Assembly: GCA_040003235.1 (NCBI GenBank)
Contig: JBDUCW010000005.1
Coordinates: forward strand, 1,665 to 65,664
From: Ferruginibacter sp.
Lineage (GTDB): Bacteria > Bacteroidota > Bacteroidia > Chitinophagales > Chitinophagaceae
Direction of reading: 5' to 3'
Length of the DNA stretch: 64,000 nt
The number at the start of each line of letters is the position of its first letter. The stretch's first letter is position 1. The notes under the pieces were generated by a model, which ran no database searches, had not been told where the DNA came from, and worked only from the letters and a program-made list of their open reading frames with translations. Shown here piece after piece: positions 12,372-42,405 of this stretch. The translations under genes were made by a program, and so were the position numbers.

Positions 12372-12393
12372 TTTTTTAATAACTTTTTTAGAA

Positions 12394-12425
12394 GGAGTTG
12401 AATTGAAATAATTCAGCTCCTTTTT
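12394..12425 (+). terminator. Intrinsic terminator after the POT gene
   Basis: GGAGTTGAATT / AATTCAGCTCC 11-bp stem (one G-U), 5-nt loop, then TTTTT. Confidence 0.75.
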
Positions 12426-12475
12426 ATTTGCAATCACAAATTTCTTTATCTTACCAAAACAAAAACTTTACTGCC

Positions 12476-21921: not shown

Positions 21922-23856
21922 TCAGGTGGTGCTTATTTTTTTTGTGGTGACTTTTATCACGCCGTTTTTCCCTTTATCTCCATATTCTTTTTCAGCTTTT
22001 GCACCGCTCAATATGTCGATTGATTGTATTGATTCCGGTTTTAATTTATCTTTTTCTCCCGCGGTTGCTTCTTTGCCATCAATAATGTACAGGGCATTGG
22101 CAGTAAGTCCGCCAAGTGGTTTCCCTGTTACAGTGATCGGCACCGAAGGTGAACTGGCTGTTGCTTTTGAAGAAGATGTCGGGTACCCCATAACTGTTAC
22201 TTCGTCAACAGATGATTTTACATTTGTTACAGCTGATACTTTTACTCCGGTTAAATTTGTAGCAGCAGCAATTGGATGCCCTGCTACTGTTACTTCGCGG
22301 ACTGCAGGACTTGCACTTTTCACAGCAGCAATTTTTACTCCGGTAACTGTTACAGCCGGGGCTGTTGCTATTTCCACTATCTCCCCAGGCGCAACATTTT
22401 CAGTAATTGTATTGGCAATTTTTGGAGTACTGTGTACTTCAACGATAGCCGGACGAACTGCTGTACCGCTATTTTTTTTGGTGGTGATCTTGATCACACC
22501 ATTTTGCGCAAGCTCACCATAGATCGCTATTGCTTCTTTATCTTTCAATACATCTATTCTTTCAATATCATTGGGATTGATGGAAGAAAGCACCGTGAAC
22601 GGCATTTTCCTTTCATCAACAATGATTAAGGGTTGCGGATGAGTTGGAACATCGGCTGTGCCATTTTCTTCCGGTTGTGGAGGAGCCAATGGAGCGGCCG
22701 GTGGTGGTGGCGGTAAAGGAAGCTCTCCGTATTTTTTTTCAAACGCAGCTTTCTGCATTTTGCTTTTCAAATCAAATTTTTCAACCTTTCCGTTTTTTTG
22801 TTTTACAGTGACAACAGAATTATTAACATCAACACTTTCTACATTAGCGGGTAATTCTTTGGGTGCAGCCGGTGGTGGTGGCGGCGGCGGCGGGGGAGGA
22901 GTTGGTGGTGGTGGCGGAGGAGGAACAGTGTCTGTAACATTCACCTGTGCAGAATACAGATTGTTTTTAAAACCAACCTGTTTTTCCCGGAAGGCCAAAA
23001 GAAGTGCTGCCGCCAGCGGCAGCACAAACAGAAATTTGGCAAGGTGCAACTTTGCACTCTTTAATTTGTTCATCATGACTATACGTTTTTTTAGTGAAGA
23101 AAAATTGAACTTCTGTGCTATACTGAATTGAGAAACTCCGATTACTTTTAATAAAAGATATTGATATTGTTTTTTGTCAATGCCGTTTTCAAGTACATTA
23201 TTATCAGCAATGAATTCGAGGTTCTGCCGGATGGCATGCCGTATCATCCAGGCAAAGGGATTGTACCAGTTAAGGATGCAGAGTATTTCTGCAAACAGAA
23301 TATCGATGGTGTGTTTTTGTTTCACATGAACAAATTCATGCCGGATCACTTCTTTAAATCCTTCTTCTTTCTGCAGATCATAATTCAGAAAAATGGAATT
23401 ACCGATGGAGAAAGGAATGATATTCTTTTTTACGCGGTAGATCTTAATCCCTTCTTCATTAATGAGGATCGCTTTTCTTTTGATCTGCAAAAAGGAAATA
23501 TATTGTACCAACAGCCTTACCGATAATATAATGGCACCGGCCGACAAAATAAGGGGAAGTGCCTGCAGAATTAATCCGTATACTGAATGGGTTTGATCAT
23601 ACGATCCTTTAATAGCCTGCAATTGCGAAAAATCTACACTGGGCAACAATTTTAAAACGCTGGTATCTTCTTTAGGTGCATTAAATAATGAAGCCACATT
23701 GATAAAGGGAATGTAAAAACAAAGCAGGCTGTTAAATAATAAGTACCACCTGTTCCAGTTATAAAAAGTAAGGCGGCGCAATACTGTTATGTAGAATAAA
23801 TAGACAACTGCCAGGCTGATGGAAAGTTTTAATAGATATTCAAAAATAAATTGCAT
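21922..23856 (-). CDS. M56 family (BlaR1-like) membrane metallopeptidase with atypical extracytoplasmic domain
   Basis: HEFVH zinc motif after 3-4 TM helices. Two poly-proline linkers. Two TonB-receptor plug-like motifs ([31 protein letters not shown] and [31 protein letters not shown]). Confidence 0.85.
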
Positions 23857-23878
23857 AAATATTTTTTTCGGGTGAAAA

Positions 23879-24241
23879 TTATTTTTCTCCTTCTATTAAA
23901 GCAATGATCTCTTTTAATTCTTTTGGCGATAATTTTTTTTGGGCCACAAAAAAATTCACCAGTTCTTTGTAAGAGTTATCAAAATAATCCTTTACAAAAC
24001 CATTCATGAATTTTTTCTTGTAATCTGCTTCGGACACAACCGGACTATATAGATATGCATTCCCGACCAAACGGCTTTCCAGGAAATTTTTCTTCTCCAG
24101 GTTTTTAATAGTAGAGGCAAGAGTTGTATAAGGCGGTAATGGTTCTTCCATTTTGTCGAGAAACATTTTTACGTTGCCTTCGCCGGTCTGCCATACTGCC
24201 TGCATGGCCTGCTCTTCCTGGAGTGTAAGTTTTTCTATCAT
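23879..24241 (-). CDS. BlaI/MecI/CopY family transcriptional repressor
   Basis: 120-aa winged helix ([13 protein letters not shown]...). Lies 22 bp upstream of the M56 gene on the same strand. Confidence 0.9.
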
Positions 24242-24533: not shown

Positions 24534-26138
24534 TTATTTCATTTTCATCACGTTGATCACTTTCTGCAGTGATCCATTCTGCAGTCTGATAAAATAAACG
24601 CCGTTCGGAAGCTGGTCATTGTAGATATCGATATTATAAGTGCCGGCTGCATAATCTTTATTCGTCAGTACTTTGATGACCTGTCCCAATGCATCCATCT
24701 GTTGTATCATCGTATTGCCGCCATTGGTAGAAAACTGAAGTGTGGCACTTAAAGAATATGGATTCGGCGACATTTTTAAAATGAGTTTGTCAGCATTGGT
24801 ATTGGTATGATCGATGTCTTCCGGCAAACCGCAGGGGCCGCCCTGTATCAATGGCAGCGCCTGGTAATTGTGTAAAAGAATTGAATCGAGCGCCGGTTGC
24901 TTTACACAGAACCATTGCTGCAATACCGAAGCATAAATACTTCTGAAATCATATTGAAACGGAATATTATTTACCACCTGGATGTCGGCAGGGATATCCG
25001 GACTGTTTCCAAGAATTCCTTTCTTTACATGTTTGCCGAACATGATCACCGGTGCAGCAGCACCATGATCTGTTCCCATACTGGCATTGGATTTTATGCG
25101 ACGGCCAAATTCAGAAAAGGTCATTCCGAGAACACGGTCATCCAGCTGCATCAGCTCAAGATCCTGCTGAAAAGAACTGACTGCTGTTGAAATATTTTTC
25201 ATCAGGTTTGCATGAAAACCTGTTGTGGTGTCACTTGCATTTACCTGGCGTTTGTGTGTATCAAACCCACCTAACGTTACGGTGTACACCCTTGTTTTTA
25301 ATCCGCCCTTGATCAATCTTGCCACAATTTTTAATTGATCTGCCAGCGAATTTTCTGTTGGATAAGATGCCAGTGTTGTTGCATTGCGATAAGCTGTTCT
25401 GATGATATCAGAATATATTTTTGTTTTTTCAGAGATCACGCGGAGATACTTCAATTCCTTATTGGCAGGAACAGAAGAGAGCGGATAATCTTCAAATGGA
25501 TTTTCGAATGTGTAAACTTTTTCAGGATTGGTAATAGAGAGGCCCATTGAATAAATACTTCCCTGCAGATCAAGCGTGGGAACATTACTGATCTGTATCG
25601 CCAAAGGATCGGGCATACTTCCGTTTGGAAATGCATCAGGATATCCGGGAAATTCATTTTCAAGATAACGGCCCATCCAGCCCGTCTTTACACGGTTTGC
25701 GCGAATGGTTGCAGTGTCTCCGCTCATCCAGATATCCCTCGCCTGAAAATGAGAAAAGTTCGGGTTGTCGTAACCGGCAGACTGAATCACATTCATCTTG
25801 CCATTGTTGAACATATTCTGCATTGCCGTCATTGCAGGATGCAATCCCGATTTATCGGTGCCATTTAAACGCAGCACTTTGCTTTGCGGGATGGCAACAT
25901 TGGTACGGGCATTATAATAATTGCCATATACATCCAGCGGTACTACCATGTTTAATCCATCATTGCCTCCCTGCAATTGAATCAGCACCAGCACGTGATC
26001 GGTATCGGTTGCTTCTTCCAGCAGTTTTGCAAGCTGACTGTTAGTAGCACTGAAAGCAGTAAATGAAAACCCATTGAGCATGGCAGGTAAAGCAACAGCG
26101 GTTGGTATTGTATTGGTTAAAAATTTTCTTCTGTTCAT
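24534..26138 (-). CDS. DUF1501 family protein with Tat-type signal and T9SS type A C-terminal sorting domain
   Basis: N-terminal NRRKFL plus h-region. DUF1501 motifs (GGNDGLN, GGFDTH, TFSEFGRR, GTDHG). Last ~85 aa are Por_Secre_tail-like (SPNPYS...GVYFIRL...QKVINVMK). Confidence 0.8.
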   Translation of the reverse strand: MNRRKFLTNTIPTAVALPAMLNGFSFTAFSATNSQLAKLLEEATDTDHVLVLIQLQGGNDGLNMVVPLDVYGNYYNARTNVAIPQSKVLRLNGTDKSGLHPAMTAMQNMFNNGKMNVIQSAGYDNPNFSHFQARDIWMSGDTATIRANRVKTGWMGRYLENEFPGYPDAFPNGSMPDPLAIQISNVPTLDLQGSIYSMGLSITNPEKVYTFENPFEDYPLSSVPANKELKYLRVISEKTKIYSDIIRTAYRNATTLASYPTENSLADQLKIVARLIKGGLKTRVYTVTLGGFDTHKRQVNASDTTTGFHANLMKNISTAVSSFQQDLELMQLDDRVLGMTFSEFGRRIKSNASMGTDHGAAAPVIMFGKHVKKGILGNSPDIPADIQVVNNIPFQYDFRSIYASVLQQWFCVKQPALDSILLHNYQALPLIQGGPCGLPEDIDHTNTNADKLILKMSPNPYSLSATLQFSTNGGNTMIQQMDALGQVIKVLTNKDYAAGTYNIDIYNDQLPNGVYFIRLQNGSLQKVINVMKMK

Positions 26139-26166
26139 GATATTGGTTTTAGAGGAACAAATAAAA

Positions 26167-27807
26167 TCAGCACAAATGAAACTCCGGTAAATTCATAATG
26201 AACCTGAACATTTCATTCAATGATGCAGTGATGACAACGTTATTATTACTGTTCCATGCGTTTGTCCAGATTGTATCATCCGTTGTGTTATTCAGTAAAA
26301 ATTTTGTTTTGATATAATTCTTTGAATTCACAGATAAGGGATAACGAAGCAGCAAGGCCGTTATATCTGCGATCAATTGATTGGGATCGGCAGGATTGCC
26401 TGAATACGATGCAAATGCTTTCACATCAATCATCCGGTCGTTGATCAATCCGTCTGTAAAATCTGCACGCCTTGGAAGTGAATTGCTGTTTACCCACAAT
26501 TCATAATTCATCGGGTCCTGAACATACGCTGCATAACCCGAAACATCAGGTGGTTGAAATAATTCCTGCTGCATTGCGGCAGCATTTTCAAACAATGACT
26601 CGAATAAAGGATAGCCATTTAAGTAATCGGTATAAGGAGGAAAATTAATATCGAATTCACGCAGCGTACCGGCGAGTATATCAAAGGGACTTTTTATATA
26701 ACAGGCCTGGTTGAGTGTATCAAAAAAATGTTCGCTTTTAAAAAGCGCTGACAGCACCGGTTTTATTTCGTAGTTGTTATTTCTTAGAATCGTTGCCAGC
26801 GGCGTAATGACATTCAGTTCTGTATTGTCATCAATATTATAATAGACAAACCATTTATAAATTTTTCTGCAAATGAATTTTGATGCTTCGGTTGTGGCGA
26901 ATATCATATCTACGAATGTGTCCAGTTCCTGCGTTGGGTTAGTGCTTCCCGTTATGACCGTGTTATTATAAAAAGACGAAAATGTTTTTGATCCGGTATC
27001 ATGAGCAGACGGATCCATAAAAGACCCGACAGGATTGCTTTTTACGCGCCAGCCCGTTAATACTCTTGCTGCAGCAATAACATCATTCTCTGTAAAACCG
27101 GAATCCGTGCCTTTGCCAATTGTAAATAATTCCTGGAATTCCCTTGCATAATTTTCGTCCGGCGCCTGCCGGGAATTAAGATAACCATTCAGATGCAGGA
27201 GCATTGCCGGATCGATGGTTACTGCTTTCGCCAATGTTTTTACGTTTCCCAGAACATTAGTGCGGAGTAAACTATGATGGCGGTATAGAAAAGCAGAATC
27301 ACCAACTTCTTCCTGCTGTACGGAATAGTGATGATGCCAGAATAAAACCATTTTTTCCTGGATGCTTCTTTCCTGTTTAATGATCAGTCCGGCCCACCAT
27401 TTACGCAGGCTTTCCATCCGCAGGCGGTTGATCGAACCTTTTACAATATCGGCGCTTGCAGTATTGGGATCATTCACCCAGGTTTGCCCCAGAGCAACGC
27501 CAAGATCATCATACAATGTTCCTTCTTCATCAATCAAACCATAATCACGCAGTGGTGGATTGGGTACAGAAATATTATTGAGTAATTCATCCACAGCCTG
27601 GTCTTTCGTTAACGTAAGCAAATGATCGATGTCGGATTTTTTTGCACCAAACATCGTCCGTTTTAAAAGATGTGCTGCTTCATTGATGGTCCATGTTCCC
27701 GTATACGGATTAATGCCACTGGTCAATCCACGTTGATTGCTGAAAACTTCCGGCTTTGTTGCAAAAAGGTTTTTTTTAGCGTTGGTAAAAAATGATTTTC
27801 TATCCAT
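26167..27807 (-). CDS. DUF1800 family protein
   Basis: Shares FWHHHY, NENYAREFQELFTIGKG and TENDVIAAARVLTGW blocks with the paralog at 42406-43896. Lies 28 bp upstream of the DUF1501 gene. Confidence 0.8.
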   Translation of the reverse strand: MDRKSFFTNAKKNLFATKPEVFSNQRGLTSGINPYTGTWTINEAAHLLKRTMFGAKKSDIDHLLTLTKDQAVDELLNNISVPNPPLRDYGLIDEEGTLYDDLGVALGQTWVNDPNTASADIVKGSINRLRMESLRKWWAGLIIKQERSIQEKMVLFWHHHYSVQQEEVGDSAFLYRHHSLLRTNVLGNVKTLAKAVTIDPAMLLHLNGYLNSRQAPDENYAREFQELFTIGKGTDSGFTENDVIAAARVLTGWRVKSNPVGSFMDPSAHDTGSKTFSSFYNNTVITGSTNPTQELDTFVDMIFATTEASKFICRKIYKWFVYYNIDDNTELNVITPLATILRNNNYEIKPVLSALFKSEHFFDTLNQACYIKSPFDILAGTLREFDINFPPYTDYLNGYPLFESLFENAAAMQQELFQPPDVSGYAAYVQDPMNYELWVNSNSLPRRADFTDGLINDRMIDVKAFASYSGNPADPNQLIADITALLLRYPLSVNSKNYIKTKFLLNNTTDDTIWTNAWNSNNNVVITASLNEMFRFIMNLPEFHLC

Positions 27808-27831
27808 GAGTTGGTCTTTACAGGTATTGAA

Positions 27832-29778
27832 TTACCGGATCAGCATGAAGGTTCCTTTCTGCTGCTGTGGTTTATTGTTGATGTCTTTATAATTGATATA
27901 ATAAATAAATGCACCCATCGGTTGAACAGATCCTTTGTAGCGCCCATCCCAGCGATTGTTCATTGTCGAACTTTTAAAAACAATTTCTCCATAACGGTTA
28001 TAGATTTCCATATTGAATGATTCGGGAACTTTTCCCAATGGTCCAAAGAAATCATTTAGTCCATCGCCATTCGGCGTAAAAGCGTTGGGTGTAAAAACCA
28101 CGGCGTCTTTTAAAACAACCACAGTAAAATAATCAGTGATTGAGCAACCGCTCGCTATTGTGTTGGTGGCTGAATATACCGTAGTGGTAATGGGGGTTGC
28201 AATGGGATTGGTACAATTCGTACAGCTTAATGACTGATGACTGGCCCATATAACAGTTCCGTTTCCACTAAAAGGAAGCGTAATGCTTTGTCCTGCGAAA
28301 ATGCTGTCGGATTTTTTCAGCTGATCAAAAGGGCCGCCAATTGCAACAGGTTTATACTTTACAAAAACAGAATCATAACCGCATGCATCTTTCAGGGTGT
28401 CGGTTACCGGGATGAAAGTATTGATATTGCAAACCGTTGAATCTTTTGAAATTGTTTTTGGGTTTTTTAATTTGATGATACCAAAATCTGTATCGCCAAA
28501 ACCATTACTGAAATCGCCATCCCCCGAATCTGTATCGCCTGCCAGGTAATATTCATCTGCAGCAGTATTGCCGATAATGCAATGAAGATTATCATTGCCT
28601 GTCCCGCCATAATTTTTTTTCCAGATAAGGTTTCCGGACGGACTTAGTTTTACTACCCAGTAATCGCCCATTCCTTTTGCACCTGTTACATCAACATCAT
28701 TCGAATAAGAAATGCCGCCGATGATATAACTGCTGTCTTTATCTGTAATGACTGAATTGGCGTATTCGGCATCGGTGCCGCCCAGAACCCTTTGCCAGTT
28801 GAGGTTTCCGGCCTGGCTTATATTCAATACCCAATAATCCTGGCTGCCTTTTGCGCCGTTCACATCTCCATCATTTGAAGTAGTATAGCCTGCGAGTGTA
28901 AGAGAACCATCAGTACCAACCGTCATGGCATAAGCAACATCATTCTGTGATCCGCCATATATTTTACTGAAGATTTTATTTCCATTCAGATCGAGCGCCA
29001 GTAACCATACGTCATAATTTTTTTGATTGGGAGGAATATCACCATCGGTTGAATTGGCATAACCCGCTAAAAATATTTTGCCATTGATGATCTTCATATC
29101 AAGCAGTTCATCATTTTTACTTCCACCAAAACATTTACTCCATAGCAGTGCACCCGTTGAGGAGACCTTCATCAGCACTGCATCTGTATAACCACCGGTT
29201 CCATGATTGCCGCTGATATCACCATCATTGGAAGTTGAAGAAGCTGTTATATAATATCCACCATCATTACTGATAGTAATATGGTTGCCGATATCAAGTC
29301 CGTTGCCGCCATATCTTTTCTGCCACTCCAAAGTTCCGGATGCGCTGAATTTTAAAAGCCAGACATCTTTTGTTCCGCCAAAGCCAGGAGTAACATCACC
29401 ATCTGTTGAATTGGTTTCGCCGAGCACGATAAAACCCCCGTCAGCAGTCTGTTCCAGGTCTCTTGCACTTTCATATCCTGTGCCGCCTAATGATTGCTGC
29501 CATTCTATAGTACCGCAACTGTTTAATTTGATGATCCACAGATCCCAATAGTCCCTGTTTGCATGTGACCCAACCTGCCCGTCTTTGGAATCTGTATATC
29601 CGGCAGCAACAGTGCCAGCATCTTTAGTGAATTTAATAACAAAAGGAATATCAATACCGGAACCTCCATAACGGAGCGCCCAGTTATTTGCAGGTATCTG
29701 CGCAACTATAAAATTGCACACCAGCAGATAACATAATACAATAAAAAAATATTTTTTTGGCAAAGGATGGATTTTCAT
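27832..29778 (-). CDS. Seven-repeat (beta-propeller-like) protein with T9SS type B C-terminal domain
   Basis: Start moved to the ATG at 29778 (MKIHPLPKKYFFIVL... signal peptide). Seven ~58-aa repeats (YGG..D......DGG....G.T.S.DGD......G..D.W..K....G...W). C-terminal FTPNGDGLNDFF gliding-motility CTD. Confidence 0.8.
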   Translation of the reverse strand: MKIHPLPKKYFFIVLCYLLVCNFIVAQIPANNWALRYGGSGIDIPFVIKFTKDAGTVAAGYTDSKDGQVGSHANRDYWDLWIIKLNSCGTIEWQQSLGGTGYESARDLEQTADGGFIVLGETNSTDGDVTPGFGGTKDVWLLKFSASGTLEWQKRYGGNGLDIGNHITISNDGGYYITASSTSNDGDISGNHGTGGYTDAVLMKVSSTGALLWSKCFGGSKNDELLDMKIINGKIFLAGYANSTDGDIPPNQKNYDVWLLALDLNGNKIFSKIYGGSQNDVAYAMTVGTDGSLTLAGYTTSNDGDVNGAKGSQDYWVLNISQAGNLNWQRVLGGTDAEYANSVITDKDSSYIIGGISYSNDVDVTGAKGMGDYWVVKLSPSGNLIWKKNYGGTGNDNLHCIIGNTAADEYYLAGDTDSGDGDFSNGFGDTDFGIIKLKNPKTISKDSTVCNINTFIPVTDTLKDACGYDSVFVKYKPVAIGGPFDQLKKSDSIFAGQSITLPFSGNGTVIWASHQSLSCTNCTNPIATPITTTVYSATNTIASGCSITDYFTVVVLKDAVVFTPNAFTPNGDGLNDFFGPLGKVPESFNMEIYNRYGEIVFKSSTMNNRWDGRYKGSVQPMGAFIYYINYKDINNKPQQQKGTFMLIR

Positions 29779-30243: not shown

Positions 30244-30651
30244 ATGAAAAAGTTACAAAAAAATTACCGCCTCATTGTTACAGTAATGATGAGCATCTTT
30301 ATTATCGCATTTACGCCGGCACATGCAGAGGGCGGAAAAAAAACAACTCCGGCTGTTGAGGTTAAATGCATCGGCTTTCAGAATGATTCACCCGTTTTTC
30401 AGTTAACATTTGCAAATGAGGAAGAAGATGAGTTTTACATAACCATCAGGGATAATCATTATAACATTATCTATTCTGAAAAAGTAAAAGGCATTAATGT
30501 TTCCCGGAAATTCCAATTGGTGAATGAAGAAAGGGAAGATGGTGATATCAATTTTGAGATCACCAGCAAAAAAACAAACAGCTCTGTAAAGTATAAAGTA
30601 AATACTACAACCCGTGTTATCAGTGATACACAGGTTACAAAAGTTGATTAA
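30244..30651 (+). CDS. Secreted hypothetical protein
   Basis: Signal peptide/TM (IVTVMMSIFIIAFTPAHA). 135 aa, no recognisable motif. Confidence 0.4.
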   Translation: MKKLQKNYRLIVTVMMSIFIIAFTPAHAEGGKKTTPAVEVKCIGFQNDSPVFQLTFANEEEDEFYITIRDNHYNIIYSEKVKGINVSRKFQLVNEEREDGDINFEITSKKTNSSVKYKVNTTTRVISDTQVTKVD

Positions 30652-30710: not shown

Positions 30711-31355
30711 TTAAAGAAAACCATAGTCAAGAATGCGGCGTTCATATTTACCGGCATGTATAACAAATGTTACTTCGTAACTGCCTGTCTCATCCTTGCT
30801 GAAGAGGTACAGGTAAACGCGGTTATCAAATTTTGAAAAATAGATCATGTTGGTAGAACGTTCTTTACCGGCTTTATCCTTATAGGTCAGGTTAAGATTG
30901 TAAAGATCTGAATAGGCTGATTGTGGAATAGCAACCGTATCCTTTCCGATCAGCATTGTGATATTACTGATGGTTGTTTTTGGCATATTGGGATAACTGC
31001 CATAGTAAGTCTTCTTATCGATCTTGATAATGTATTTTTCATCATAATCAAGTTTGTGTTTGTTGAAATCAAACAGGCCGGTGGTCACAACTGCTTTTAC
31101 ATTTTCACCTTCGAAGGTCATGGAGTTCGGCGTGTGAGAAGAGAAGGTTATTTTCTTCAGATCAGCGCGTCCCATGCTCTCATCAATCGCAGACATCGCA
31201 AAGGTTGCCACGTCGGTACGCACATCATCCTTGGGTAATTTTGCAAAAGACTCCCGTTTATTTCTTGTATCAGGAATGTTCTCATCCAGCTGATATTGCG
31301 CCTGGCAATAAAGGCCGGATAATAAAACAACTACTGCCAATATATATTTCTTCAT
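30711..31355 (-). CDS. Hypothetical secreted/lipoprotein
   Basis: Signal peptide MKKYILAVVVLLSGLYCQAQ. 214 aa, no known motif. Confidence 0.4.
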   Translation of the reverse strand: MKKYILAVVVLLSGLYCQAQYQLDENIPDTRNKRESFAKLPKDDVRTDVATFAMSAIDESMGRADLKKITFSSHTPNSMTFEGENVKAVVTTGLFDFNKHKLDYDEKYIIKIDKKTYYGSYPNMPKTTISNITMLIGKDTVAIPQSAYSDLYNLNLTYKDKAGKERSTNMIYFSKFDNRVYLYLFSKDETGSYEVTFVIHAGKYERRILDYGFL

Positions 31356-31602: not shown

Positions 31603-34545
31603 TTAAAGGCCCATCGCCTTATATACAGCTTCCTGAATATTGGTCCGCACATTCATGTTCAGTAATTTTTTATTATCACCACCATCAGGACAAACACGGT
31701 TGCTTAAAAACACATACACCAGTTTATAAGTGGGATCTGCCCAAACGCATGTACCTGTAAATCCTGTGTGGCCGAATGTTTCAGGCGATGCAGATCTGCA
31801 CGGATAAGGCTCTTTAATAGTGGCGTTATCTTTTTCAGGCTTGTCAAACCCAAATCCTCTTCTGCTGATATTGCTGTGATAGGTATTAAAATAATCGATC
31901 GTTTCTTTTTTTAAATATTGTTTGTCATTGATGCTTCCTCCATTTAACAGCATCTGCATGATCATGGCAAGGCCATAGGCATTACTGAACAGCCCCGCAT
32001 GACCGCTTACTCCTCCAAACATAGCCGCTCCGGGATCATGCACATCTCCACGCAATAACTGCAAACGAAAAAATTTCTCATTTTCTGTGGGCGCAATATC
32101 ATTCAATAAAAATTTTTCACGCGGCTTAAATCCCGTCTCCGTTAATCCAAGTGGCTTATAAAATTCCTGAGCTGCGTATTCATCCAGCGGCAATCCGCTG
32201 ACGGCTTCTACAATTTTTCCAAGAAAAATAAAATCATTGTCGCTGTACACATATTTATCAGCAGCGCCTAACGGGCTTTGTAATATGCGCTGGTAAATTG
32301 TATCACGCCAACTCGTACGCATATAAAGATCTCGGGCTACTCGGATAGAGAATGAATCACTGGGTACGGCTGCATAGTATTCAGGTTTGGGTACGCCGTT
32401 AGCATCAATGGTTTCTTTGTAAAAAGGAATGTATGCAACGAGCCCGGCCTGGTGCAACAATATGTTTTCAAGAACAAGATTTTCTTTATTGGTTCCCCGA
32501 ACCCATGGAAGATAAGTGCCGAGTGTTTTTTTAAGATCTATTTTTCCCTGCTCATATAATTTCATTACAGAAATAGTGGTTGCACAGACTTTTGTAACAG
32601 AAGCCATATCGTAAATAGATTCTGGTGTAACGGGGTCTGCATTATCATAAGTATAATGCCCGAATGCTTTGTGATAAGCGATCTTGCCGTCTTTTAAAAC
32701 CATCACCACACAACCGGGCGTTGCTCCTTTTGCAATGGCATCATTGGCAACCGAATCGATTATAGTAAGTTTTGTTTCATCCAATCCAACCTGTGCCGGA
32801 CTAACACGTGGCAGAAAAAAGGCACTCGTAACTATACCGTCTCCAAATTTATACTGATCGCAAACGGTCACAGGCAATTTCCCTTTACCCGGAATTTTTC
32901 CCTGCAATAAATCAAGCGCAGTGTTTTGAGTAATATCATCATCATCATAACAAACCATCAGGTTTTTAGCTTCGCAGAAATTTTTAGCTGCGTAAGGATT
33001 TCCAAATAACAGCGTTATAGATTTTGTCTGCTCCTGCAACTGTTTTGCAAGGTCAACTGCTGTTTTACTGATCCCGAAATTATTTGCCGGGGCCCTATTA
33101 TAAGCGTGTATGCCGATGATCACCTTCGCATATCTTTTCTTTATCAGTTCTACAGTCGATAAGATCCTTCCTGCATCCTGTTTGTAATTAAAATAAAATA
33201 CATCTGCATTGTAATCGGTTCTCAAACGTTTTGCAAAAGCATTGTCAGCACTCAATCCAATTCCTACATATACAATTTCTTTTTTGCCTGTGCTGCTTGT
33301 TTTAAGATTAAAAAAGTCATCATCCGTTTTCTTTAAAACAGTGATCGCATTTTCGGCGACCAGTTTCTTCATTTCATTGGATCCTCTGTTAAGATCATTC
33401 GTAAGATTATCTGAGTTAACAGGAATTACATTGTTTAATCCATAAGTATATTTGGCTTCCAGTACTCTTTTGCAATGCGTATAAATGTCGTCCCAGCTCA
33501 GCCGTTTATTTTTTATCGCTTCTTTTATTTTTGAAATGGCCAATGGAATATCTGCCGGCAGACAAAGCATATCATTACCTGCGATGAGTGATTCAACAGA
33601 AGCGGCGCCATCCGGAAAGAATTTTTTTACGCCCTGCATTTCCAGGGCATCAGTAAACGTTAGTCCCTGGAAACCGAGACTGTCTCTCATTAAACCGGTT
33701 ACATTATTTTTAGATAAGGACGTTGCCCTGTTAGGACTGTTGTCAATCGCGGGTATATATAGATGTGCGATCATCACACTGCCAATACCTGCTTTAAATA
33801 TTTCACGGAAAGGATACAGTTCCAGTGAATCGAGTTGCTGCATGGATTTATTAATTACCGGCAGATCGAAATGACTATCCACAGAAACATCTCCATGGCC
33901 AGGAAAATGTTTTGCGCATGCCATTATTCCAACATCCTGCATACCTTTCATATACTGGGTTCCAAAAAGTGCAACCTTATATTTATTTTCTCCAAAACTA
34001 CGGTCATTGATCACCGGATTATCAGGGTTATTATTTACATCCACTACCGGCGCATAGTTTACCTGTATGCCGATTCGTTTGCACTGTTCCCCAACCAGTT
34101 TACCATATTTGTAAACAATGGATGCATCCTGCATGGCACCCAGCATCATTTGTTTGTTCAATGGAATAACACTGTCCATCCGCATTCCAAGTCCCCACTC
34201 AGCGTCGATACACATGAGGATGGGAGTTTTTGCCATCGCCTGCAAACTATTAATAATGCTTGCCTGCTTGACTGGTGCTCCCTGGAAAAGACATACGCCG
34301 CCAATATTATATTGTTTCACTAGGTCGGCAACCTGTTTGTCAAAAAATAAAGGCCCTTTTGTTTTTGGATCAATGGTCGATAATCTTACTACCATCAGCT
34401 GCGCAATTCTTTCATCATCACTCAATGTTTTGAAAACGCTATCCGACCAGATTTTTGCCGCTGCCGATGAAGGAAGATCGCTGATCTGCGAAAAAGAATG
34501 AATAGAAGAAAGCATAAAAATGATAAAGGCAAGTGAACGCTGCAT
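31603..34545 (-). CDS. Fusion protein: GH3 beta-N-acetylhexosaminidase (NagZ-like) + serine hydrolase (beta-lactamase/PBP4*-like)
   Basis: Signal peptide. GH3 KHFPGHGD motif in the N-half. C-half has SxxK (SVTK), YSDN and HTGFTG motifs. 980 aa. Confidence 0.85.
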   Translation of the reverse strand: MQRSLAFIIFMLSSIHSFSQISDLPSSAAAKIWSDSVFKTLSDDERIAQLMVVRLSTIDPKTKGPLFFDKQVADLVKQYNIGGVCLFQGAPVKQASIINSLQAMAKTPILMCIDAEWGLGMRMDSVIPLNKQMMLGAMQDASIVYKYGKLVGEQCKRIGIQVNYAPVVDVNNNPDNPVINDRSFGENKYKVALFGTQYMKGMQDVGIMACAKHFPGHGDVSVDSHFDLPVINKSMQQLDSLELYPFREIFKAGIGSVMIAHLYIPAIDNSPNRATSLSKNNVTGLMRDSLGFQGLTFTDALEMQGVKKFFPDGAASVESLIAGNDMLCLPADIPLAISKIKEAIKNKRLSWDDIYTHCKRVLEAKYTYGLNNVIPVNSDNLTNDLNRGSNEMKKLVAENAITVLKKTDDDFFNLKTSSTGKKEIVYVGIGLSADNAFAKRLRTDYNADVFYFNYKQDAGRILSTVELIKKRYAKVIIGIHAYNRAPANNFGISKTAVDLAKQLQEQTKSITLLFGNPYAAKNFCEAKNLMVCYDDDDITQNTALDLLQGKIPGKGKLPVTVCDQYKFGDGIVTSAFFLPRVSPAQVGLDETKLTIIDSVANDAIAKGATPGCVVMVLKDGKIAYHKAFGHYTYDNADPVTPESIYDMASVTKVCATTISVMKLYEQGKIDLKKTLGTYLPWVRGTNKENLVLENILLHQAGLVAYIPFYKETIDANGVPKPEYYAAVPSDSFSIRVARDLYMRTSWRDTIYQRILQSPLGAADKYVYSDNDFIFLGKIVEAVSGLPLDEYAAQEFYKPLGLTETGFKPREKFLLNDIAPTENEKFFRLQLLRGDVHDPGAAMFGGVSGHAGLFSNAYGLAMIMQMLLNGGSINDKQYLKKETIDYFNTYHSNISRRGFGFDKPEKDNATIKEPYPCRSASPETFGHTGFTGTCVWADPTYKLVYVFLSNRVCPDGGDNKKLLNMNVRTNIQEAVYKAMGL

Positions 34546-34668: not shown

Positions 34669-35502
34669 TCAGTTTTTTAATGCATAGTTAAAAGAAAACT
34701 GGTAGATGGGCAACGCATAATTTATTTCTGGTTTTTTCACATATTTATAATACACGGCTTTCAGGTTGATGAGGTTGTTGATCTCAATACCAAGTCCTAA
34801 TGAATAACCATGGTAAAGTCCATTGGTTTGAATGCCCGGTAGAAATGTACTGAGTTGCGAAGGATTTGTATAGCAACCGATATAGCGGAGTGCAACCCAC
34901 ATTACGCCTACGTTTCCGGCATTGCCCCGTTCCCATGCGCCTGTTTGAAAATATATGCCGCCACTTAAAAAACTATTTAAAAAATTAACGGGGTTGCCTG
35001 TTTGTGGATCTGTGATCTGTCCTGTTTTATAACCCGTCAATAATCTTTCACCGAAATGATATAAAAGACCTGACCTTGTAATTTTCGATGTTTTTTTACT
35101 GAAAAATAAAATGCCGTCGCTTGAAACATTAATAAGTCCGCTCAGTGGGTTGATGTATTGATTGACCAGCTGATCATTTGCTTTTTGTCCGGAACTGATG
35201 ATATTCTGGTTCTGAAAATTATTGGCAGATACGCCTGAATATAAGGATAATGGAATCGAAAACTTTCCCGGTTCGCCGATAAATAGACGGATAAATCTTG
35301 CTGCCGCATTGACCTGGCCGTTACTCATGATATCTATAAAACCACTGGTGAAAATTTCGGGCTTATAACTTTTGGCTGTACCAAGAGAATCTTTTTTTAT
35401 GGAAGTCAATGCCTGGCTACTCAGCAATAACGGATGCAGAAGCACAAGCCACATTAAAACTGTTGTGAGAAAATAATTTCGGTATCGCAGACTCTTGTTC
35501 AT
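34669..35502 (-). CDS. Hypothetical outer-membrane (beta-barrel-like) protein
   Basis: Signal-like N-terminus, alternating beta-strand pattern, aromatic-rich C-terminus (YQFSFNYALKN). Last gene of a 4-gene same-strand cluster. Confidence 0.35.
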   Translation of the reverse strand: MNKSLRYRNYFLTTVLMWLVLLHPLLLSSQALTSIKKDSLGTAKSYKPEIFTSGFIDIMSNGQVNAAARFIRLFIGEPGKFSIPLSLYSGVSANNFQNQNIISSGQKANDQLVNQYINPLSGLINVSSDGILFFSKKTSKITRSGLLYHFGERLLTGYKTGQITDPQTGNPVNFLNSFLSGGIYFQTGAWERGNAGNVGVMWVALRYIGCYTNPSQLSTFLPGIQTNGLYHGYSLGLGIEINNLINLKAVYYKYVKKPEINYALPIYQFSFNYALKN

Positions 35503-35529
35503 TTGTTTTCATACTTATAAAATGCAGGG

Positions 35530-36180
35530 TCAACCGGAAAATCTGTAACTGAATATTTTCCTGAAAGAACTGTTCTGTTGAAAAAAATCAACCGGGTAAT
35601 AGGAGAGTTTTTTTCGCTCCAGTATTTTTTCATATAACCTGTTATTCAGATCAATCACAAGCGGCTTAAAATTAAATTTCACCGGATCCAGTTTTTCCAG
35701 CACGAGTGCACAAAATTCAGAACAGTACAGACTGTCATCGTCATTGATCCTGAAGCTGGCGTCAAAAAAAATCTTTCTTGTCCCGTAGCTATGACAAATA
35801 TTTTCCAGCTTTTTTATTTGAAGAGGACTGCTATTGCATTCCCAGATGCTGAGATAGTAAACGTCAGACGAAACAACAAACGACTCCAGCGAATCAACTA
35901 CCAATGCGCTTTTCGAATGGTCGTATATATCGGTAACATTATAGAGTAATATCTTCCCGTTTTTATAAAAGCCAATTCCGGCATGAGTGATATTGGTATC
36001 GGCAATATTGAACCGGTGAGCGATGAGGCTGGATTTACTTTTAGTGCCACGGCAAACAATATATATATTATTTTCACGGAACTCTGATTGTTGCGTGATA
36101 TTGTATAGATCTTTTACACGCTGCGCATCTATGGCATTGCAAAAGATAACAGTTAATATTATAATGACCCCACTTTTCAT
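35530..36180 (-). CDS. YiiX/YaeF-like permuted papain-fold (NlpC/P60 superfamily) hydrolase, secreted
   Basis: Signal peptide. His-before-Cys order (ITHAGIGF ... LYCSEFCALVLEK) as in the permuted C92-type family. Motif-level evidence only. Confidence 0.45.
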   Translation of the reverse strand: MKSGVIIILTVIFCNAIDAQRVKDLYNITQQSEFRENNIYIVCRGTKSKSSLIAHRFNIADTNITHAGIGFYKNGKILLYNVTDIYDHSKSALVVDSLESFVVSSDVYYLSIWECNSSPLQIKKLENICHSYGTRKIFFDASFRINDDDSLYCSEFCALVLEKLDPVKFNFKPLVIDLNNRLYEKILERKKLSYYPVDFFQQNSSFRKIFSYRFSG

Positions 36181-36200
36181 TCGCCTCTTTTCTGAAATGA

Positions 36201-36797
36201 TTATTTACCCAGTTTCCTGTAAACAGCAATACTGAACGCAGTTGTTTTTACCTGTATCTTATCCGTTTCATTTTTATAATGAAATAAATAATTCCGTTGC
36301 GCGGCAACTCCGATGGCAATGGATATTTTATCTGTCAGCATTTTTTTATAAGCGCCCGTAACAGCCAGCCCGAGATCATTACCCAGATTTTGTTGGCTGA
36401 CGGTCTGGTCGAGATTGATCTTTTTCTTCAGCTTCTTATCCTGTAAACAATAATTGAATACCGGACCGAACTCTATAAAAAAATCGGATCGCTGATTAAT
36501 AAAAAAATATCTTTTAAGCGACAGGTTAATATTCAGACAATAGCGGCTTTCAAATACGTTAATATTTCCTGTATCGGTATAACTGAACTTCAATGCTGCT
36601 CCTCCTGCTGAAAGAGAAAAGAAATTATCATTTTTTATCTGGGCTTCATAACCTCCGGTGACAGCAGTAAATAACATTATTTTTTTAAAGGAATTGGTTT
36701 CCCCGAATGCATAACCGGTTTGAAAAGATAAATTCATTTCCTGCGCAAAATTTTTTTGCCCCAATAAAATAGTGGCGAACAACAAAAGATGTTTCAT
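36201..36797 (-). CDS. Small outer-membrane beta-barrel protein (OmpW/OmpA-N-like size)
   Basis: Signal peptide (LLGQKNFAQ). About 8 amphipathic beta-strands. 198 aa. Confidence 0.4.
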   Translation of the reverse strand: MKHLLLFATILLGQKNFAQEMNLSFQTGYAFGETNSFKKIMLFTAVTGGYEAQIKNDNFFSLSAGGAALKFSYTDTGNINVFESRYCLNINLSLKRYFFINQRSDFFIEFGPVFNYCLQDKKLKKKINLDQTVSQQNLGNDLGLAVTGAYKKMLTDKISIAIGVAAQRNYLFHYKNETDKIQVKTTAFSIAVYRKLGK

Positions 36798-36854
36798 ATT
36801 TATATTAATTTAAAAATGCCGGCCCTACTGGTACCGTAAAGCCGGCATTTTGAT

Positions 36855-37478
36855 TCAGCAAAGTCCGAATACAACAGCGCCAATCACTGCGCCGCCCACT
36901 CCGCACCAGAATCCGCAAATACCTAATCCCACAACGAAACCCCCGAGGGCACCAACGATGGCACAATCACCACTATCAGCCGGAATGCCATTTATCTCAC
37001 ATTGATTGCTTCTTGCACTGTTATAAGCAATGGACATATTGGTGAGCACAATTTCTTTATCTGTATCTGCCGCCCTGGTTCCTTTCACATTTTCAACTGC
37101 TGAAACGAGATAGTCCTGAAATTCTTTGCTCTTTAAGCTTTGAGAATTGTGGTACAGTTCAAGCAGTTTGTTTTTTACAAAATCAGATGCGCTGGAATTA
37201 TTGATGAGGTCCACCAGGTTGAAACGGGAACCCTTCACAGTTTTAACTACTGCTGCAACAAGGTCTGTGTTTACAGTTGTGTGCAGTGGAATTGTTTTGG
37301 AATAATAGTCCAGCGATTCCTGACTGAACGAAGTTGCTTTGCCGGATTTATAATCATCCGTGATTATTTTTAAAGAAGATACATAATCAATACCGCGCTG
37401 ATCATAAGGATTGTTTGATTGTGCTGATGAAGCCAATGTAAGGATTACAAATCCAGACAACATAAGAATAGTTTTCAT
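36855..37478 (-). CDS. Secreted protein with helical domain and Cys-rich glycine-zipper C-terminus
   Basis: Signal peptide. C-terminal CAIVGALGGFVVGLGICGFWCGVGGAVIGAVVFGLC (GxxxG ladder). Six Cys in the last 47 aa. Confidence 0.4.
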   Translation of the reverse strand: MKTILMLSGFVILTLASSAQSNNPYDQRGIDYVSSLKIITDDYKSGKATSFSQESLDYYSKTIPLHTTVNTDLVAAVVKTVKGSRFNLVDLINNSSASDFVKNKLLELYHNSQSLKSKEFQDYLVSAVENVKGTRAADTDKEIVLTNMSIAYNSARSNQCEINGIPADSGDCAIVGALGGFVVGLGICGFWCGVGGAVIGAVVFGLC

Positions 37479-37750
37479 GTTACGTTATTTTTTAAGTTAA
37501 CTGCGGCCAGGTCAGACGCTGTTGCAGCAAACAGGAAAATAATATTCCCGCTTATTTCCGTCAGCAGCAATAAAAAGAAATAAGCAGTATTGTGTATTCA
37601 TGACGTTGACTAGTATAGGTTCATGCCGGCACTTTACCACGGATACATCCTCTCATTTTTGCCGGTATAAAACTCTTTTATTCCGGTGAACTACCCCATA
37701 TGATTATCGTATAAAATATTTTATTTTGGTATACATCAATACCTATTAAT

Positions 37751-37960
37751 ATGAATACTGTTATTGGAAAAAAGATCCGCCTCGCAAGGCTTGAAAAAGG
37801 TTATTCGCAAAAAAACATTGCAGACCTATTATATATGGAGCAGCCATCTTTTTGCAGACTGGAAACCGGAATGCGCGAGATCAGGGTATCTGAACTGGAA
37901 AAGATCGCGGTGATTTTAGAAAAACCGGTCAACTATTTTTTCTTTGATAATGCCGGATAA
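37751..37960 (+). CDS. XRE family helix-turn-helix transcriptional regulator (69 aa)
   Basis: IRLARLEKGYSQKNIADLLYMEQPSFCRLETGMREIRVSEL is a canonical HTH_3 pattern. Divergent from the 36855-37478 cluster. Confidence 0.85.
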   Translation: MNTVIGKKIRLARLEKGYSQKNIADLLYMEQPSFCRLETGMREIRVSELEKIAVILEKPVNYFFFDNAG

Positions 37961-37982
37961 TTGGTAACAGTTAACTATTTTT

Positions 37983-38780
37983 TTATCGTATACCACCTGT
38001 CTTTTCAGCTTCTTTAAAATAACTGACTGTATTGCTGTCCACACTATTTATTTCTTCAAGCCCCCAGCTTTGCTCTATCCTGGGCATCTTAAAAGTATAT
38101 CCAGGAAATGTTCTTGCTTCGGTTTCAGTATGCGCAAAAACCATTGTCACTTTCTTTAAACTATCCGTAACCGGGGAAAGATGAAAAGCCGGATTTTTAA
38201 TATCAGCGCTGTAAACAAATAAGCCATTGCCTTTTTTATCACTGTCAGCGCCTCTTCCCAGCAACTGGTATCTTTCCTGATACCCCTTGCTTTTAGTGCC
38301 GCTATCAGAAAAGGTTAAGGTATGTATCGATTCCGGAAAGATGGCGTCAATGTTTATTTGAGCATACCACTCACGTTTCAAAAAAGAATCAACGTTGATC
38401 TTTTGTACGGGGTTATCGTTTTTTAGGGCGTAATACAGGCCTGATGAACTTCCTTTTGCCCGCAATAAAACAAAATGGTCCAGCTCCATATGCCAGGGTT
38501 TATCTTGACTGTTATGTTTAAGAACCTGGTGACCCGCTTTATACAGTATCCAGTTTTGATAAAAATATATTTCTGCTGTTAACGTGTCTGATCTTGTAAA
38601 ATCGTTGAACGCAGCAATTGTAGCAATACTTGGGGAGCAGCTATAAGTGAGTTTATATCCTTTTATCTCCATTTCATTGCCGGTATGCTTTGTGATTGAC
38701 TGTTTTCGTGAAGTATAATAACAATTACTGAGAAAGAATAAGCACAGCCACACGAATAAACCGGACAGTCTGTGGAGCAT
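37983..38780 (-). CDS. Hypothetical lipoprotein
   Basis: Lipobox-like LFFLSNC. 265 aa, no known motif. Confidence 0.4.
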   Translation of the reverse strand: MLHRLSGLFVWLCLFFLSNCYYTSRKQSITKHTGNEMEIKGYKLTYSCSPSIATIAAFNDFTRSDTLTAEIYFYQNWILYKAGHQVLKHNSQDKPWHMELDHFVLLRAKGSSSGLYYALKNDNPVQKINVDSFLKREWYAQINIDAIFPESIHTLTFSDSGTKSKGYQERYQLLGRGADSDKKGNGLFVYSADIKNPAFHLSPVTDSLKKVTMVFAHTETEARTFPGYTFKMPRIEQSWGLEEINSVDSNTVSYFKEAEKTGGIR

Positions 38781-41147: not shown

Positions 41148-42350
41148 TTAAACGAAGTTTAACTGCTCATACTTTTTACCCAATATCAATTGATCATCTG
41201 CGCCGAGCCATTTATTTAAAACAGTAGCATATACGCTTTTGAAATCCACTTTATATTTCACATCACCTTCATCAAGATTGACAAGATCAGGCATGTCGTT
41301 TAGAATACCTTTCTGTTTCAATCCGCCACCAATAAAAAACATATTACTTCCTTTTCCATGATCAGTTCCACCGCTTGCATTCTGTGTCAGTCTTCTTCCA
41401 AATTCACTGAAGGTCATCATGAGCACGTCTTCAAAACGATTGTTCTTTTTCAGGTCATTGGTAAAAGCCCGGATGGCATCGCTCATTTCAGTGAAGAGAC
41501 GCTTTTGTGTGTTCTCCTGTCCGACATGCGTATCAAAACTGCCAATGCTCACATAATAAACTTTGGTATTGATATCAGATAAAATAAGTGACGAAATCGT
41601 TTTTAAATTTTTGCCCAGTTCGGTATTGGGATAAACTTCAGTTGACGGATGCATTTTACTTTGCTTATAAATATAATCAGCTGAAGAAATTGTTTCGGCC
41701 ATTGTTTTATACAAATAATCTGCAGGACGTTCATGTTCGTACTGATGTTGTTTGGCCAGCGCTTTAAAATACTGCGCCTGCGAAGCATTGAATAAACGTT
41801 GCGGATCTTTTAATGCCAGTCCTTTTATATTATCTCCTTTTAAAGCAAGACTTAAAACGTCATCCAGTTCAAGTGCCTGCGTAGGTTTATCGCAATCCTT
41901 GCATTGAGCATCCAGGTATTTACCCAGCCATCCTGTTGATGAATATTCATTGCTTGCAGAAGCAGTATGCCAGATGTCCATGCTGCGGAAATGGCTGCGG
42001 TCCGGTTCAGGATAACCAACACTGTTCATGATACCGAGTTGTCCCTGGTCAAATAATTCTTTAAAAGAAGAAAGTGCAGGATTGATACCCACTTCATCAT
42101 TCAGCAACAGTGCATTTTCTTTGGTAATGCCGAGCTTAGGCCGTTCACGGTAATAAATATCATTTCTTATGGGGATAACAGTATTGAGCCCATCATTGCC
42201 GCCACTCATCTGCAAAACCACCAATACTTTATTTCCCGGTGGAACCATTTTACCACCGTTACCTTCAAATGCCTTTAAAAATTTCGGCATCATGAAAGAA
42301 GCGCTTGCAAGTGAGCCGATCTGTAAAAATTCTCTGCGTTTGATAACCAT
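41148..42350 (-). CDS. DUF1501 family protein with Tat-type signal (no T9SS CTD)
   Basis: KRREFLQIGSLASASFMM N-terminus. GGNDGLN, GSFDTH, TFSEFGRR and GTDHG blocks shared with 24534-26138. Confidence 0.85.
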   Translation of the reverse strand: MVIKRREFLQIGSLASASFMMPKFLKAFEGNGGKMVPPGNKVLVVLQMSGGNDGLNTVIPIRNDIYYRERPKLGITKENALLLNDEVGINPALSSFKELFDQGQLGIMNSVGYPEPDRSHFRSMDIWHTASASNEYSSTGWLGKYLDAQCKDCDKPTQALELDDVLSLALKGDNIKGLALKDPQRLFNASQAQYFKALAKQHQYEHERPADYLYKTMAETISSADYIYKQSKMHPSTEVYPNTELGKNLKTISSLILSDINTKVYYVSIGSFDTHVGQENTQKRLFTEMSDAIRAFTNDLKKNNRFEDVLMMTFSEFGRRLTQNASGGTDHGKGSNMFFIGGGLKQKGILNDMPDLVNLDEGDVKYKVDFKSVYATVLNKWLGADDQLILGKKYEQLNFV

Positions 42351-42359
42351 GACCTGGAG

Positions 42360-42387: not shown

Positions 42388-42405
42388 AACTTCTAAAGAA
42401 GTTTA

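Follow-up and report, generated by a model that had tools for sequence, protein, structure and literature searches.

What does the gene pair DUF1800-DUF1501 do, and where in the bacterial cell does it do it? The two families (PF08811 and PF07394 in Pfam) are among the larger bacterial families without a known function, DUF1800 filling 12,559 clusters at 50% identity, and their genes are almost always found together. The question is posed by a stretch of 64,000 nucleotides from Ferruginibacter sp. (assembly GCA_040003235.1, contig JBDUCW010000005.1, positions 1,665 to 65,664; here called the window), which holds two such pairs. In one pair, which we call a-type, the DUF1501 protein ends in a sorting domain for the type IX secretion system (T9SS), and in the other, b-type, it does not; the predicted locations within one cell are the surface for the first and the periplasm for the second. 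The original prediction, made from the bare sequence, held that the function of the pair had not been established experimentally, and no experimental function for DUF1800, DUF1501, PF07394 or PF08811 turned up in the searchable literature. We propose, with middling confidence, that the two genes form an enzyme module in which DUF1501 would be exported in folded form through twin-arginine translocation (Tat) with DUF1800 as a hitchhiker, and in which the a-type would travel onward by T9SS.

A two-gene DUF1800-DUF1501 module

The five open reading frames (ORFs) in question were all recovered where they had been placed, on the minus strand. A gene for a propeller-like protein with a type B T9SS C-terminal domain (CTD) (27832-29778; 648 aa from the ATG at 29778, the mechanical ORF starting from a TTG at 29802) is followed after 24 bp by DUF1800a (26167-27807; 546 aa; PF08811, E 5.4e-90) and, after a further 28 bp, by DUF1501a (24534-26138; 534 aa; PF07394, E 5.2e-18). 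The second pair, DUF1800b (42406-43896; 496 aa; PF08811, E 8.1e-106) and DUF1501b (41148-42350; 400 aa; PF07394, E 9.1e-30), is separated internally by 55 bp and begins 11.4 kb past the end of the first operon; the earlier figure of 14 kb between them was approximate. DUF1800 profile scores were 303 and 355 bits against a Pfam gathering threshold of 26.1, with profile positions 1-418/419 matched, and the DUF1501 profile (gathering threshold 27 bits) gave 65.8 bits for 24534-26138 and 104.5 bits for 41148-42350. DUF1501a represents a divergent DUF1501 subtype, since just positions 236-343 of the profile are matched. In pairwise alignments the paralogs are 32% (DUF1800a and DUF1800b) and 35% (DUF1501a and DUF1501b) identical, and both members of each family carry the same motifs, GGNDGLN, FDTH, TFSEFGRR and GTDHG in DUF1501, and FWH.H, [DN]EN[YF]ARE..ELFT.G.G and TEND...AAR..TGW in DUF1800. 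The families, both CTD types, the short gaps, the shared motifs and the paralogy named in the original prediction are thus borne out by profile searches and alignments, as is the lack of a CTD on the second DUF1501.

The CTD-bearing DUF1501 and its DUF1800 each have close homologues in at least 120 clusters (77-92% and 68-82% identity, respectively), and the few of these with a named source come from Chitinophagaceae, Chitinophagales, Bacteroidetes or Ferruginibacter. Gene order was examined in 83 loci, 80 of which have a full-length CTD-bearing relative and came from a scan of species-representative genomes, the other three being added by exact protein look-up; all of their ORFs were searched with the window proteins. 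The 80 loci are drawn from Chitinophagales, Sphingobacteriales, Flavobacteriales, Cytophagales and Saprospiraceae, along with a few metagenome-assembled genomes (MAGs) that carry the label Ignavibacteria or Chlorobi. In essentially all of the 83 loci that are not cut by a contig end, the gene directly upstream of the CTD-bearing DUF1501 is DUF1800. The stop of DUF1800 and the start of DUF1501 are a median of 17 nt apart (30 nt or less in 55 of 77), and the CTD was detected in most of the 87 orthologous DUF1501 ORFs. Four loci (L056, L065, L080 and L083) have the pair duplicated as a unit. Three of these are Flavobacteriales MAGs with the duplicate pairs arranged in tandem; in L056, a Chitinophagales MAG, one copy is inverted relative to the other.

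This near-universal and tightly spaced position upstream of DUF1501 agrees with the partner role that had been guessed for DUF1800, and the best reading of the pattern is that DUF1800 would be an obligate partner of DUF1501. Pairwise identities of the two proteins correlate across loci (r = 0.89); shared ancestry alone would give much of this correlation, and we therefore take it as a sign of joint inheritance only. The b-type pair is kept in Ferruginibacter at 73-84% identity, always with DUF1800 upstream and with housekeeping genes around, and 120 close homologues of DUF1501b measure 397-406 aa and lack a CTD. Pairs of a-type and b-type differ more from each other (~29-34% identity) than a-type orthologues do across orders (36-43% at minimum), from which it follows that the duplication is old. 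Each DUF1501 subtype has retained its own DUF1800 subtype.

The conserved unit is this two-gene module. The original prediction had taken three genes, including the one for the propeller-like protein, as the operon of interest; examination of gene neighbourhoods upheld the DUF1800-DUF1501 pairing and did not uphold the third member. Propeller orthologues precede the pair in 8 of the 83 loci, L001-L008 only, where DUF1501 is at least 65% identical to that of the window. The pair rather than the trio is the conserved unit because the propeller gene is limited to these eight closest, Ferruginibacter-like relatives; the propeller protein is a clade-specific neighbour, a local add-on of that lineage and not part of the conserved machine.

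DUF1800-DUF1501 operons have been described from Proteobacteria, for example linked to bacterial chitin synthase genes (PMC5122149). Those operons have the same two Pfam families, gene order and adjacency as the window, and their DUF1501 has a twin-arginine motif. Unlike the a-type pair of the window, the proteobacterial copies lack both a T9SS CTD and a neighbouring propeller gene, and lie in a polysaccharide-synthesis context (PMC5122149). The second pair of the window (41148-43896) is the equivalent of this periplasmic type, to which the first adds a T9SS tag and a 45-aa extension of DUF1800.

Although not part of the module, the propeller protein is a recognizable T9SS cargo in its own right. 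A hydrophobic Sec-type signal peptide (aa 1-26; 12-mer hydropathy 2.69, which is strongly hydrophobic) is followed by seven tandem repeats of ~58 residues (aa 33-441; 28456-29682, minus strand), an Ig-like linker and the type B (CHU_C) CTD (27850-28092, minus strand; residues 571-651 of the 656-aa ORF). The CTD scores well above the cut-offs of both models, with 62 bits against 27 for PF13585 (E 5.8e-17) and 55.6 against 35 for TIGR04131 (E 4.3e-15). No Pfam repeat model matches the repeats. The repeat alignment, and a phmmer match of this region to residues 406-646 of CylK (PDB 7fh6/7ron; E 3e-17), which we take to be the seven-bladed beta-propeller of that protein, support the seven-repeat, propeller-like description given before, and we read the repeats as a probable CylK-like, seven-bladed beta-propeller. 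Type B CTD cargo usually, though not obligatorily, adjoins a gene for a PorP/SprF-like partner, as known from the Flavobacterium johnsoniae literature. No such partner was found beside the propeller gene, where neither Pfam nor NCBIfam gives a match for the ORFs at 30244-30651 and 30711-31355, and the downstream neighbours on the other side are DUF1800 and DUF1501.

Export signals of the two proteins

Both DUF1501 copies have N-termini of the Tat type, in keeping with the usual Tat dependence that the original prediction had given for the family. Tat substrates are marked by an S/T-R-R-x-F-L-K motif and, after it, a hydrophobic region of weak hydrophobicity. NRRKFL in DUF1501a and KRREFL in DUF1501b are each followed by an uncharged, weakly hydrophobic stretch with a 12-mer hydropathy of 1.58 and 1.28, respectively. 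In DUF1501a the putative signal peptide spans aa 1-30 (26049-26138, minus strand) and consists of MNRRKFL, an uncharged hydrophobic region (h-region) and A-F-S, with the cleavage site placed by eye. A basic pair of the form [RK]R-x-[FL], mostly RR, is found in 78 of the 87 DUF1501a orthologues and in 111 of 120 close homologues. Hydropathy was used here after a TATFIND-like test for uncharged runs had been dropped, as real and orphan RR motifs could not be told apart by it.

At the other end of DUF1501a, aa 457-532 (24543-24770, minus strand) form a type A T9SS CTD, scoring 29.2 bits against a cut-off of 27 for PF18962 (E 1.2e-6) and 26 against 23 for TIGR04183. In the model of the protein, this C-terminal beta-sandwich matches solved T9SS CTDs by Foldseek, namely the mirolase CTD (8qb1), the substrate chain 8glk_D and PorZ (5m11). 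DUF1501a in this respect resembles canonical type A cargo such as the gingipains and Flavobacterium hydrolases, which have a C-terminal beta-sandwich passing TIGR04183 and PF18962. The difference lies at the N-terminus. The T9GPred rules, drawn from 102 proven T9SS cargoes, require a Sec signal and exclude Tat signals (10.1101/2023.03.31.535141), and canonical type A cargo has a Sec signal by these rules, where DUF1501a has one of Tat type. By its motif DUF1501a fails the Sec-only rule and T9GPred would exclude it; its combination of export signals is thus one that the current rules for T9SS cargo do not allow. Two papers on T9SS treat Tat in general terms only. The closest relatives are Chitinophagaceae, a family known to have T9SS.

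No signal peptide was found on DUF1800a or DUF1800b by hydropathy and the position of the start codon. For DUF1800a no start codon is available between the upstream stop and the ATG at 27807, and the 45 residues ahead of its first conserved motif are hydrophilic, with a maximum 12-mer hydropathy of 0.06. DUF1800b leaves no room for a signal peptide because its conserved motif begins at residue 11, and 120 of 122 b-type DUF1800 representatives likewise have 20 aa or fewer ahead of this motif. Among 76 a-type orthologues and 122 b-type representatives, a single sequence of each set has a hydrophobic stretch before the first motif. The hydrophobic N-termini of L014 and P0384 were set aside as probably resulting from miscalled starts. 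One DUF1800 representative, P0496, has a genuine-looking signal peptide, which the 12-mer hydropathy screen did not flag.

The a-type DUF1800 proteins have an N-terminal extension of ~43-45 aa (27673-27807 in the window, minus strand) that the b-type proteins do not have. A twin-arginine-like motif, MDRR[DE]F[LF], opens it in 43 of the 76 orthologues and in 106 of the 120 close homologues, the window version being MDRKSFF. After the motif comes a hydrophilic linker rich in lysine and arginine, in place of an h-region.

Predicted folds and active site

Structure prediction followed by a Foldseek search placed DUF1501a in the alkaline phosphatase (AP) superfamily and left DUF1800a without a fold match. 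The AlphaFold2 model of DUF1501a has a mean confidence (predicted local distance difference test, pLDDT) of 66 and a predicted template modelling score (pTM) of 0.65, with several weak loops. The PDB gives 26 matches to it at E of 0.001 or less, and those to the catalytic part (6hhm, 6xlp/6vat, 4uoo, 3lxq and 8di0; E 5e-5 to 1e-3, probability 0.96-1.0) all belong to the AP superfamily; among them are S1 sulfatases, LtaS, PbgA/YejM and 3lxq. Sequence searches of the PDB with DUF1501, DUF1800 or the DUF1501 profile returned nothing usable.

Conserved residues can be compared with the pattern of this superfamily, in which a metal-ligand Asp follows strand 1, the nucleophile stands at the N-terminus of a helix and a D-H pair binds metal, D-H-G being a hallmark metal-binding motif. 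Across 89 DUF1501 sequences, reaching down to ~34% identity, the invariant residues include G57-G-N-D60-G, S129-H130-F131, D293-x-H295, T340-x-S-E-F-G-R-R347 and G355-T-D357-H358-G359. In the model D60 follows the strand at 49-55, S129 follows the strand at 115-122 a few residues before the helix at 134-137, and D357-H358-G359 follow the strand at 336-342, the loops having pLDDT below 50. D60, S129 and D357-H358 would roughly take the positions of the superfamily's first metal ligand, nucleophile and D-H pair. The predicted metal and nucleophile residues are invariant.

The original prediction described DUF1501 as sulfatase- or alkaline phosphatase-like, and the Foldseek matches uphold the fold. 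They do not extend to a strict sulfatase, as the formylglycine motif C/S-x-P-x-R is absent from both DUF1501 copies (SDAIR in DUF1501b is a relaxed match without the proline); because of this absence we do not regard DUF1501 as a formylglycine (S1) sulfatase. The candidate nucleophile, S129, sits in an invariant S-H-F context, and a serine at this position, if we infer its role correctly, would favour phosphoryl over sulfuryl transfer. Most likely, DUF1501 is a metal-dependent enzyme of the AP superfamily with a serine nucleophile, a hydrolase or transferase acting on phospho- or sulfo-esters. The Bacteroidota version offers the predicted catalytic serine and metal site as targets for mutation.

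DUF1800a is mostly helical in its AlphaFold2 model (pLDDT 75, pTM 0.70) and is read as an all-helical protein, and Foldseek found no fold match for it in the PDB (best E 0.74, TM-score ~0.1). Some twenty residues, mostly polar, are invariant across 83 DUF1800 sequences, among them R50, N207, E218, N219, R222, E223, E226, D242, H269 and K274. A stretch of ~50 residues (aa ~255-307 in DUF1800b) resembles planctomycete PSD domains below the Pfam thresholds: of 70 members, 20 hit PSD2/DUF1585, with a best E of 0.003, and 7 hit PSD1/DUF1553, against at most 2 for any other family. PSD1 proteins are partners of DUF1501 in bacteria of the Planctomycetes-Verrucomicrobia-Chlamydiae (PVC) group, where signal peptides are reported among the proteins of the module (PMC3542564). 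Since PSD1 proteins partner DUF1501 there, the two kinds of partner, DUF1800 and the PSD type, may be homologous. The PVC modules of DUF1501 with PSCyt/PSD1, known from Planctomycetes and Verrucomicrobia, are like the window in this sub-threshold similarity and unlike it in that their partner carries cytochrome-c motifs and the module has signal peptides, the partner in the window having neither (PMC3542564).

Both DUF1800 proteins of the window end in ...PE[FY].LC (last sense codon and stop at 26167-26172 and 42406-42411). The terminal cysteine is found in 120 of 120 close a-type homologues and in 75 of 122 b-type representatives. It was rejected as a conserved functional residue, since no more than 13 of the 83 a-type orthologues from the various orders end in it; what is conserved at the DUF1800 C-terminus is E-[YF]-[QH]-L-x.

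Export model, alternatives and gene surroundings

From the gene content, domains, motifs, adjacency and signals described above, we infer the use of Tat and T9SS, the formation of a complex and the catalytic chemistry. DUF1501 would fold in the cytoplasm and cross the inner membrane through Tat, and DUF1800, which has no signal of its own, would most likely be carried over in a pre-formed complex as a Tat hitchhiker. For the copy at 24534-27807, T9SS would then move DUF1501a, possibly with its partner, over the outer membrane, to be anchored or released; passage through T9SS after Tat export is predicted because of the type A CTD. The copy at 41148-43896 would stop in the periplasm, and the propeller protein would be a separate cargo using Sec and its type B CTD. 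As to function, we commit ourselves to DUF1501 as a predicted surface or periplasmic, metal-dependent phospho- or sulfo-esterase with DUF1800 as its obligate helical partner; the esterified polymer that the original prediction named as a substrate is a guess.

In Tat hitchhikers such as the small and large subunits of [NiFe] hydrogenase, or DmsAB, the signal is on one subunit and the partner encoded next to it is exported in the pre-assembled complex. The window pair is similar in having a Tat signal on DUF1501 alone and a signal-less DUF1800 encoded beside it. The known hitchhikers are redox enzymes with complex cofactors whose complexes have been demonstrated, whereas the complex proposed here is a prediction, and the RR-x-F-L motif without a hydrophobic region on many T9SS-type DUF1800 proteins has no counterpart among them. 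Export by Tat followed by the type II secretion system (T2SS) is established for PlcH, PlcN, PA3910 and PA4140 of Pseudomonas aeruginosa (PMC4899797). There, too, export has two steps, with a folded phosphoesterase-type enzyme passing through Tat and then a separate outer-membrane system; the difference is that T2SS uses no linear sorting tag and its substrates are proven, the window having a CTD for T9SS and an unproven substrate (PMC4899797).

Apparently new is the way in which four features come together: a Tat signal with a T9SS CTD, a signal-less partner, an orphan RR motif and a hint of kinship between DUF1800 and PSD proteins. The families and their pairing are known, though uncharacterised, and many Bacteroidota have the architecture with a CTD, which automatic annotations already include. 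If export by Tat and then T9SS holds true, predictions of T9SS secretomes systematically miss a conserved class of cargo, and T9SS accepts proteins, possibly complexes, that have already folded in the cytoplasm. An extension of the model, which we consider unlikely, is a double piggy-back in which DUF1800 would cross the inner membrane by the Tat signal of its partner and the outer membrane by the partner's T9SS CTD, as a folded heterodimer, with the orphan RR motif having a part in co-targeting. If true, this would make DUF1501 the first T9SS cargo to depend on Tat, and DUF1800 the first hitchhiker on T9SS. That DUF1800 accompanies DUF1501 through T9SS is pure speculation.

Several points weigh against the proposed route. 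Tat followed by T9SS is without precedent, all 102 proven T9SS cargoes using Sec (10.1101/2023.03.31.535141), and genes for the Tat and T9SS machinery were not found within the 64-kb window. The Tat assignments were made by motif and 12-mer hydropathy; of the 120 close homologues of periplasmic-type DUF1501, 70 have R-K rather than R-R, as does the DUF1800a of the window itself. The DUF1501a model is mediocre, with pLDDT below 50 exactly at the proposed active-site loops, and its TM-scores to solved structures are low (0.25-0.44), as may be expected of a model of moderate quality. Genomic coupling is the only evidence for the putative interaction of DUF1800 with DUF1501.

DUF1800 might instead stay in the cytoplasm as a dedicated maturation factor or Tat-proofreading chaperone that inserts a metal or cofactor, modifies the nucleophile or holds the signal peptide until folding is done, with DUF1501 alone being exported. 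We think this somewhat unlikely, even though a helper of this kind would need no signal peptide, would fit the strict pairing and tight spacing of the genes, and would account for the many invariant polar residues of DUF1800, which are typical of an enzyme. Tat dependence itself implies an obligatory cytoplasmic step, and the Tat chaperones TorD and DmsD set a precedent, being all-helical and encoded beside their substrates. However, DUF1800 exceeds mature DUF1501 in size and is far larger than known Tat chaperones, and a generic cytoplasmic helper would need neither a subtype-matched DUF1800 nor the conserved T9SS-type extension. The apparent signal peptide of P0496 also speaks against a purely cytoplasmic protein, as does the faint but recurrent similarity to PSD1 and PSD2, given that signal peptides are reported for the PVC module of DUF1501 (PMC3542564). 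Because of P0496, the PSD similarity and the subtype matching, we regard co-export of DUF1800 as most likely. Quite improbable, in our view, is that all three genes act as one functional unit in which the propeller would be a substrate-binding or anchoring partner of the enzyme pair. Their shared direction and gaps of 24 and 28 bp in the window would suit such a unit, the arrangement is kept in eight related genomes despite differing flanking genes, and in three loci (L055, L056 and L059) another type B CTD protein, with PKD/Ig domains, lies directly downstream of DUF1501, a hint that the pair may repeatedly be associated with surface proteins. Yet 75 of the 83 loci keep the pair and lack the propeller gene, the called gap between propeller and DUF1800 is ~27, 82 and 266 bp in close relatives, and the PKD/Ig proteins resemble the propeller protein in the CTD region only, to which one of them adds a stretch immediately ahead of that region. 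Adjacency by chance is plausible, given how many CHU_C proteins such genomes encode.

The catalytic part of the proposal faces its own alternative, namely that DUF1501 would not be an esterase and would be a non-catalytic ligand-binding domain, as in PbgA/YejM, or a redox or metal-handling component. PbgA/YejM is indeed among the best Foldseek matches, and for the DUF1501-PSCyt modules of planctomycetes, where the partners have cytochrome motifs, Kamneva et al. suggested that DUF1501 takes part in electron transport (PMC3542564). Gene neighbours lend some support: a TonB-dependent receptor lies downstream in ~21 Chitinophagaceae loci and is nearest, below the curated cut-offs, to heme/hemoglobin and ZnuD types rather than SusC, which hints at nutrient or metal acquisition, and genes for Fur, SCO1/SenC and MerC lie near the pair in L001. 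Nevertheless we consider this very unlikely, since the expected nucleophile and metal-ligand positions are all invariant in the 89 sequences, the pattern of an active enzyme; moreover, Pfam finds no heme-binding or redox motif in DUF1800 or DUF1501 of the window, and the receptor neighbour is confined to one family and not present in the window.

In the Chitinophagaceae loci just mentioned, genes for the receptor and for a DUF2721 membrane protein follow the pair on the same strand, in seven cases within ~100 bp. The loci are L010, L014-L019, L021, L023, L024, L026, L027, L031, L032, L034, L036, L040, L041, L048, L053 and L054, and in most of them the receptor is on the strand of the CTD-bearing DUF1501. 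The receptor is ~800 aa long with CarboxypepD_reg, Plug and barrel domains, and the DUF2721 gene stands just beyond it in 14 loci. A general link between the pair and TonB-dependent receptors was dropped, given this restriction to Chitinophagaceae and the absence of such a receptor from the window.

Scans for sigma-70 promoters and terminators around either pair gave no sites above those in shuffled sequence, a scan that does not cover the promoters of Bacteroidota. A genomic island was considered and rejected: the guanine-cytosine content is uniform at ~0.40 across the window and for this reason gives no compositional sign of one.

Directly downstream of the first operon (21922-24241, minus strand) are genes for a BlaI-like repressor of 120 aa and a BlaR1/M56-like membrane protein of 644 aa, the latter with a long polyproline tract and a partial match to the TonB-receptor Plug domain. 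Upstream on the same strand, 31603-34545 encodes a 980-aa fusion of a GH3 glycoside hydrolase with a serine beta-lactamase/penicillin-binding protein (PBP)-like domain, and 34669-38780 holds five co-directional ORFs of 277, 216, 198, 207 and 265 aa with no Pfam match at the thresholds used. On the plus strand, the 1720-aa product of 52162-57324 is a subtilase (Peptidase_S8) that also has MAM-like and CARDB-like domains, and no T9SS CTD was detected in it at E of 0.001 or less. In F. lapsinanis and F. profundus (L084 and L085), the b-type pair abuts a PTR2 peptide transporter, joined by OPT in F. profundus, and beyond the transporters lie purD, mreBC and PBP2, with rodA in F. lapsinanis. The same transporter-purD-mreBC block is found in the window at 2712-14509, separated from the b-type pair by ~26.6 kb that include the T9SS-type operon.

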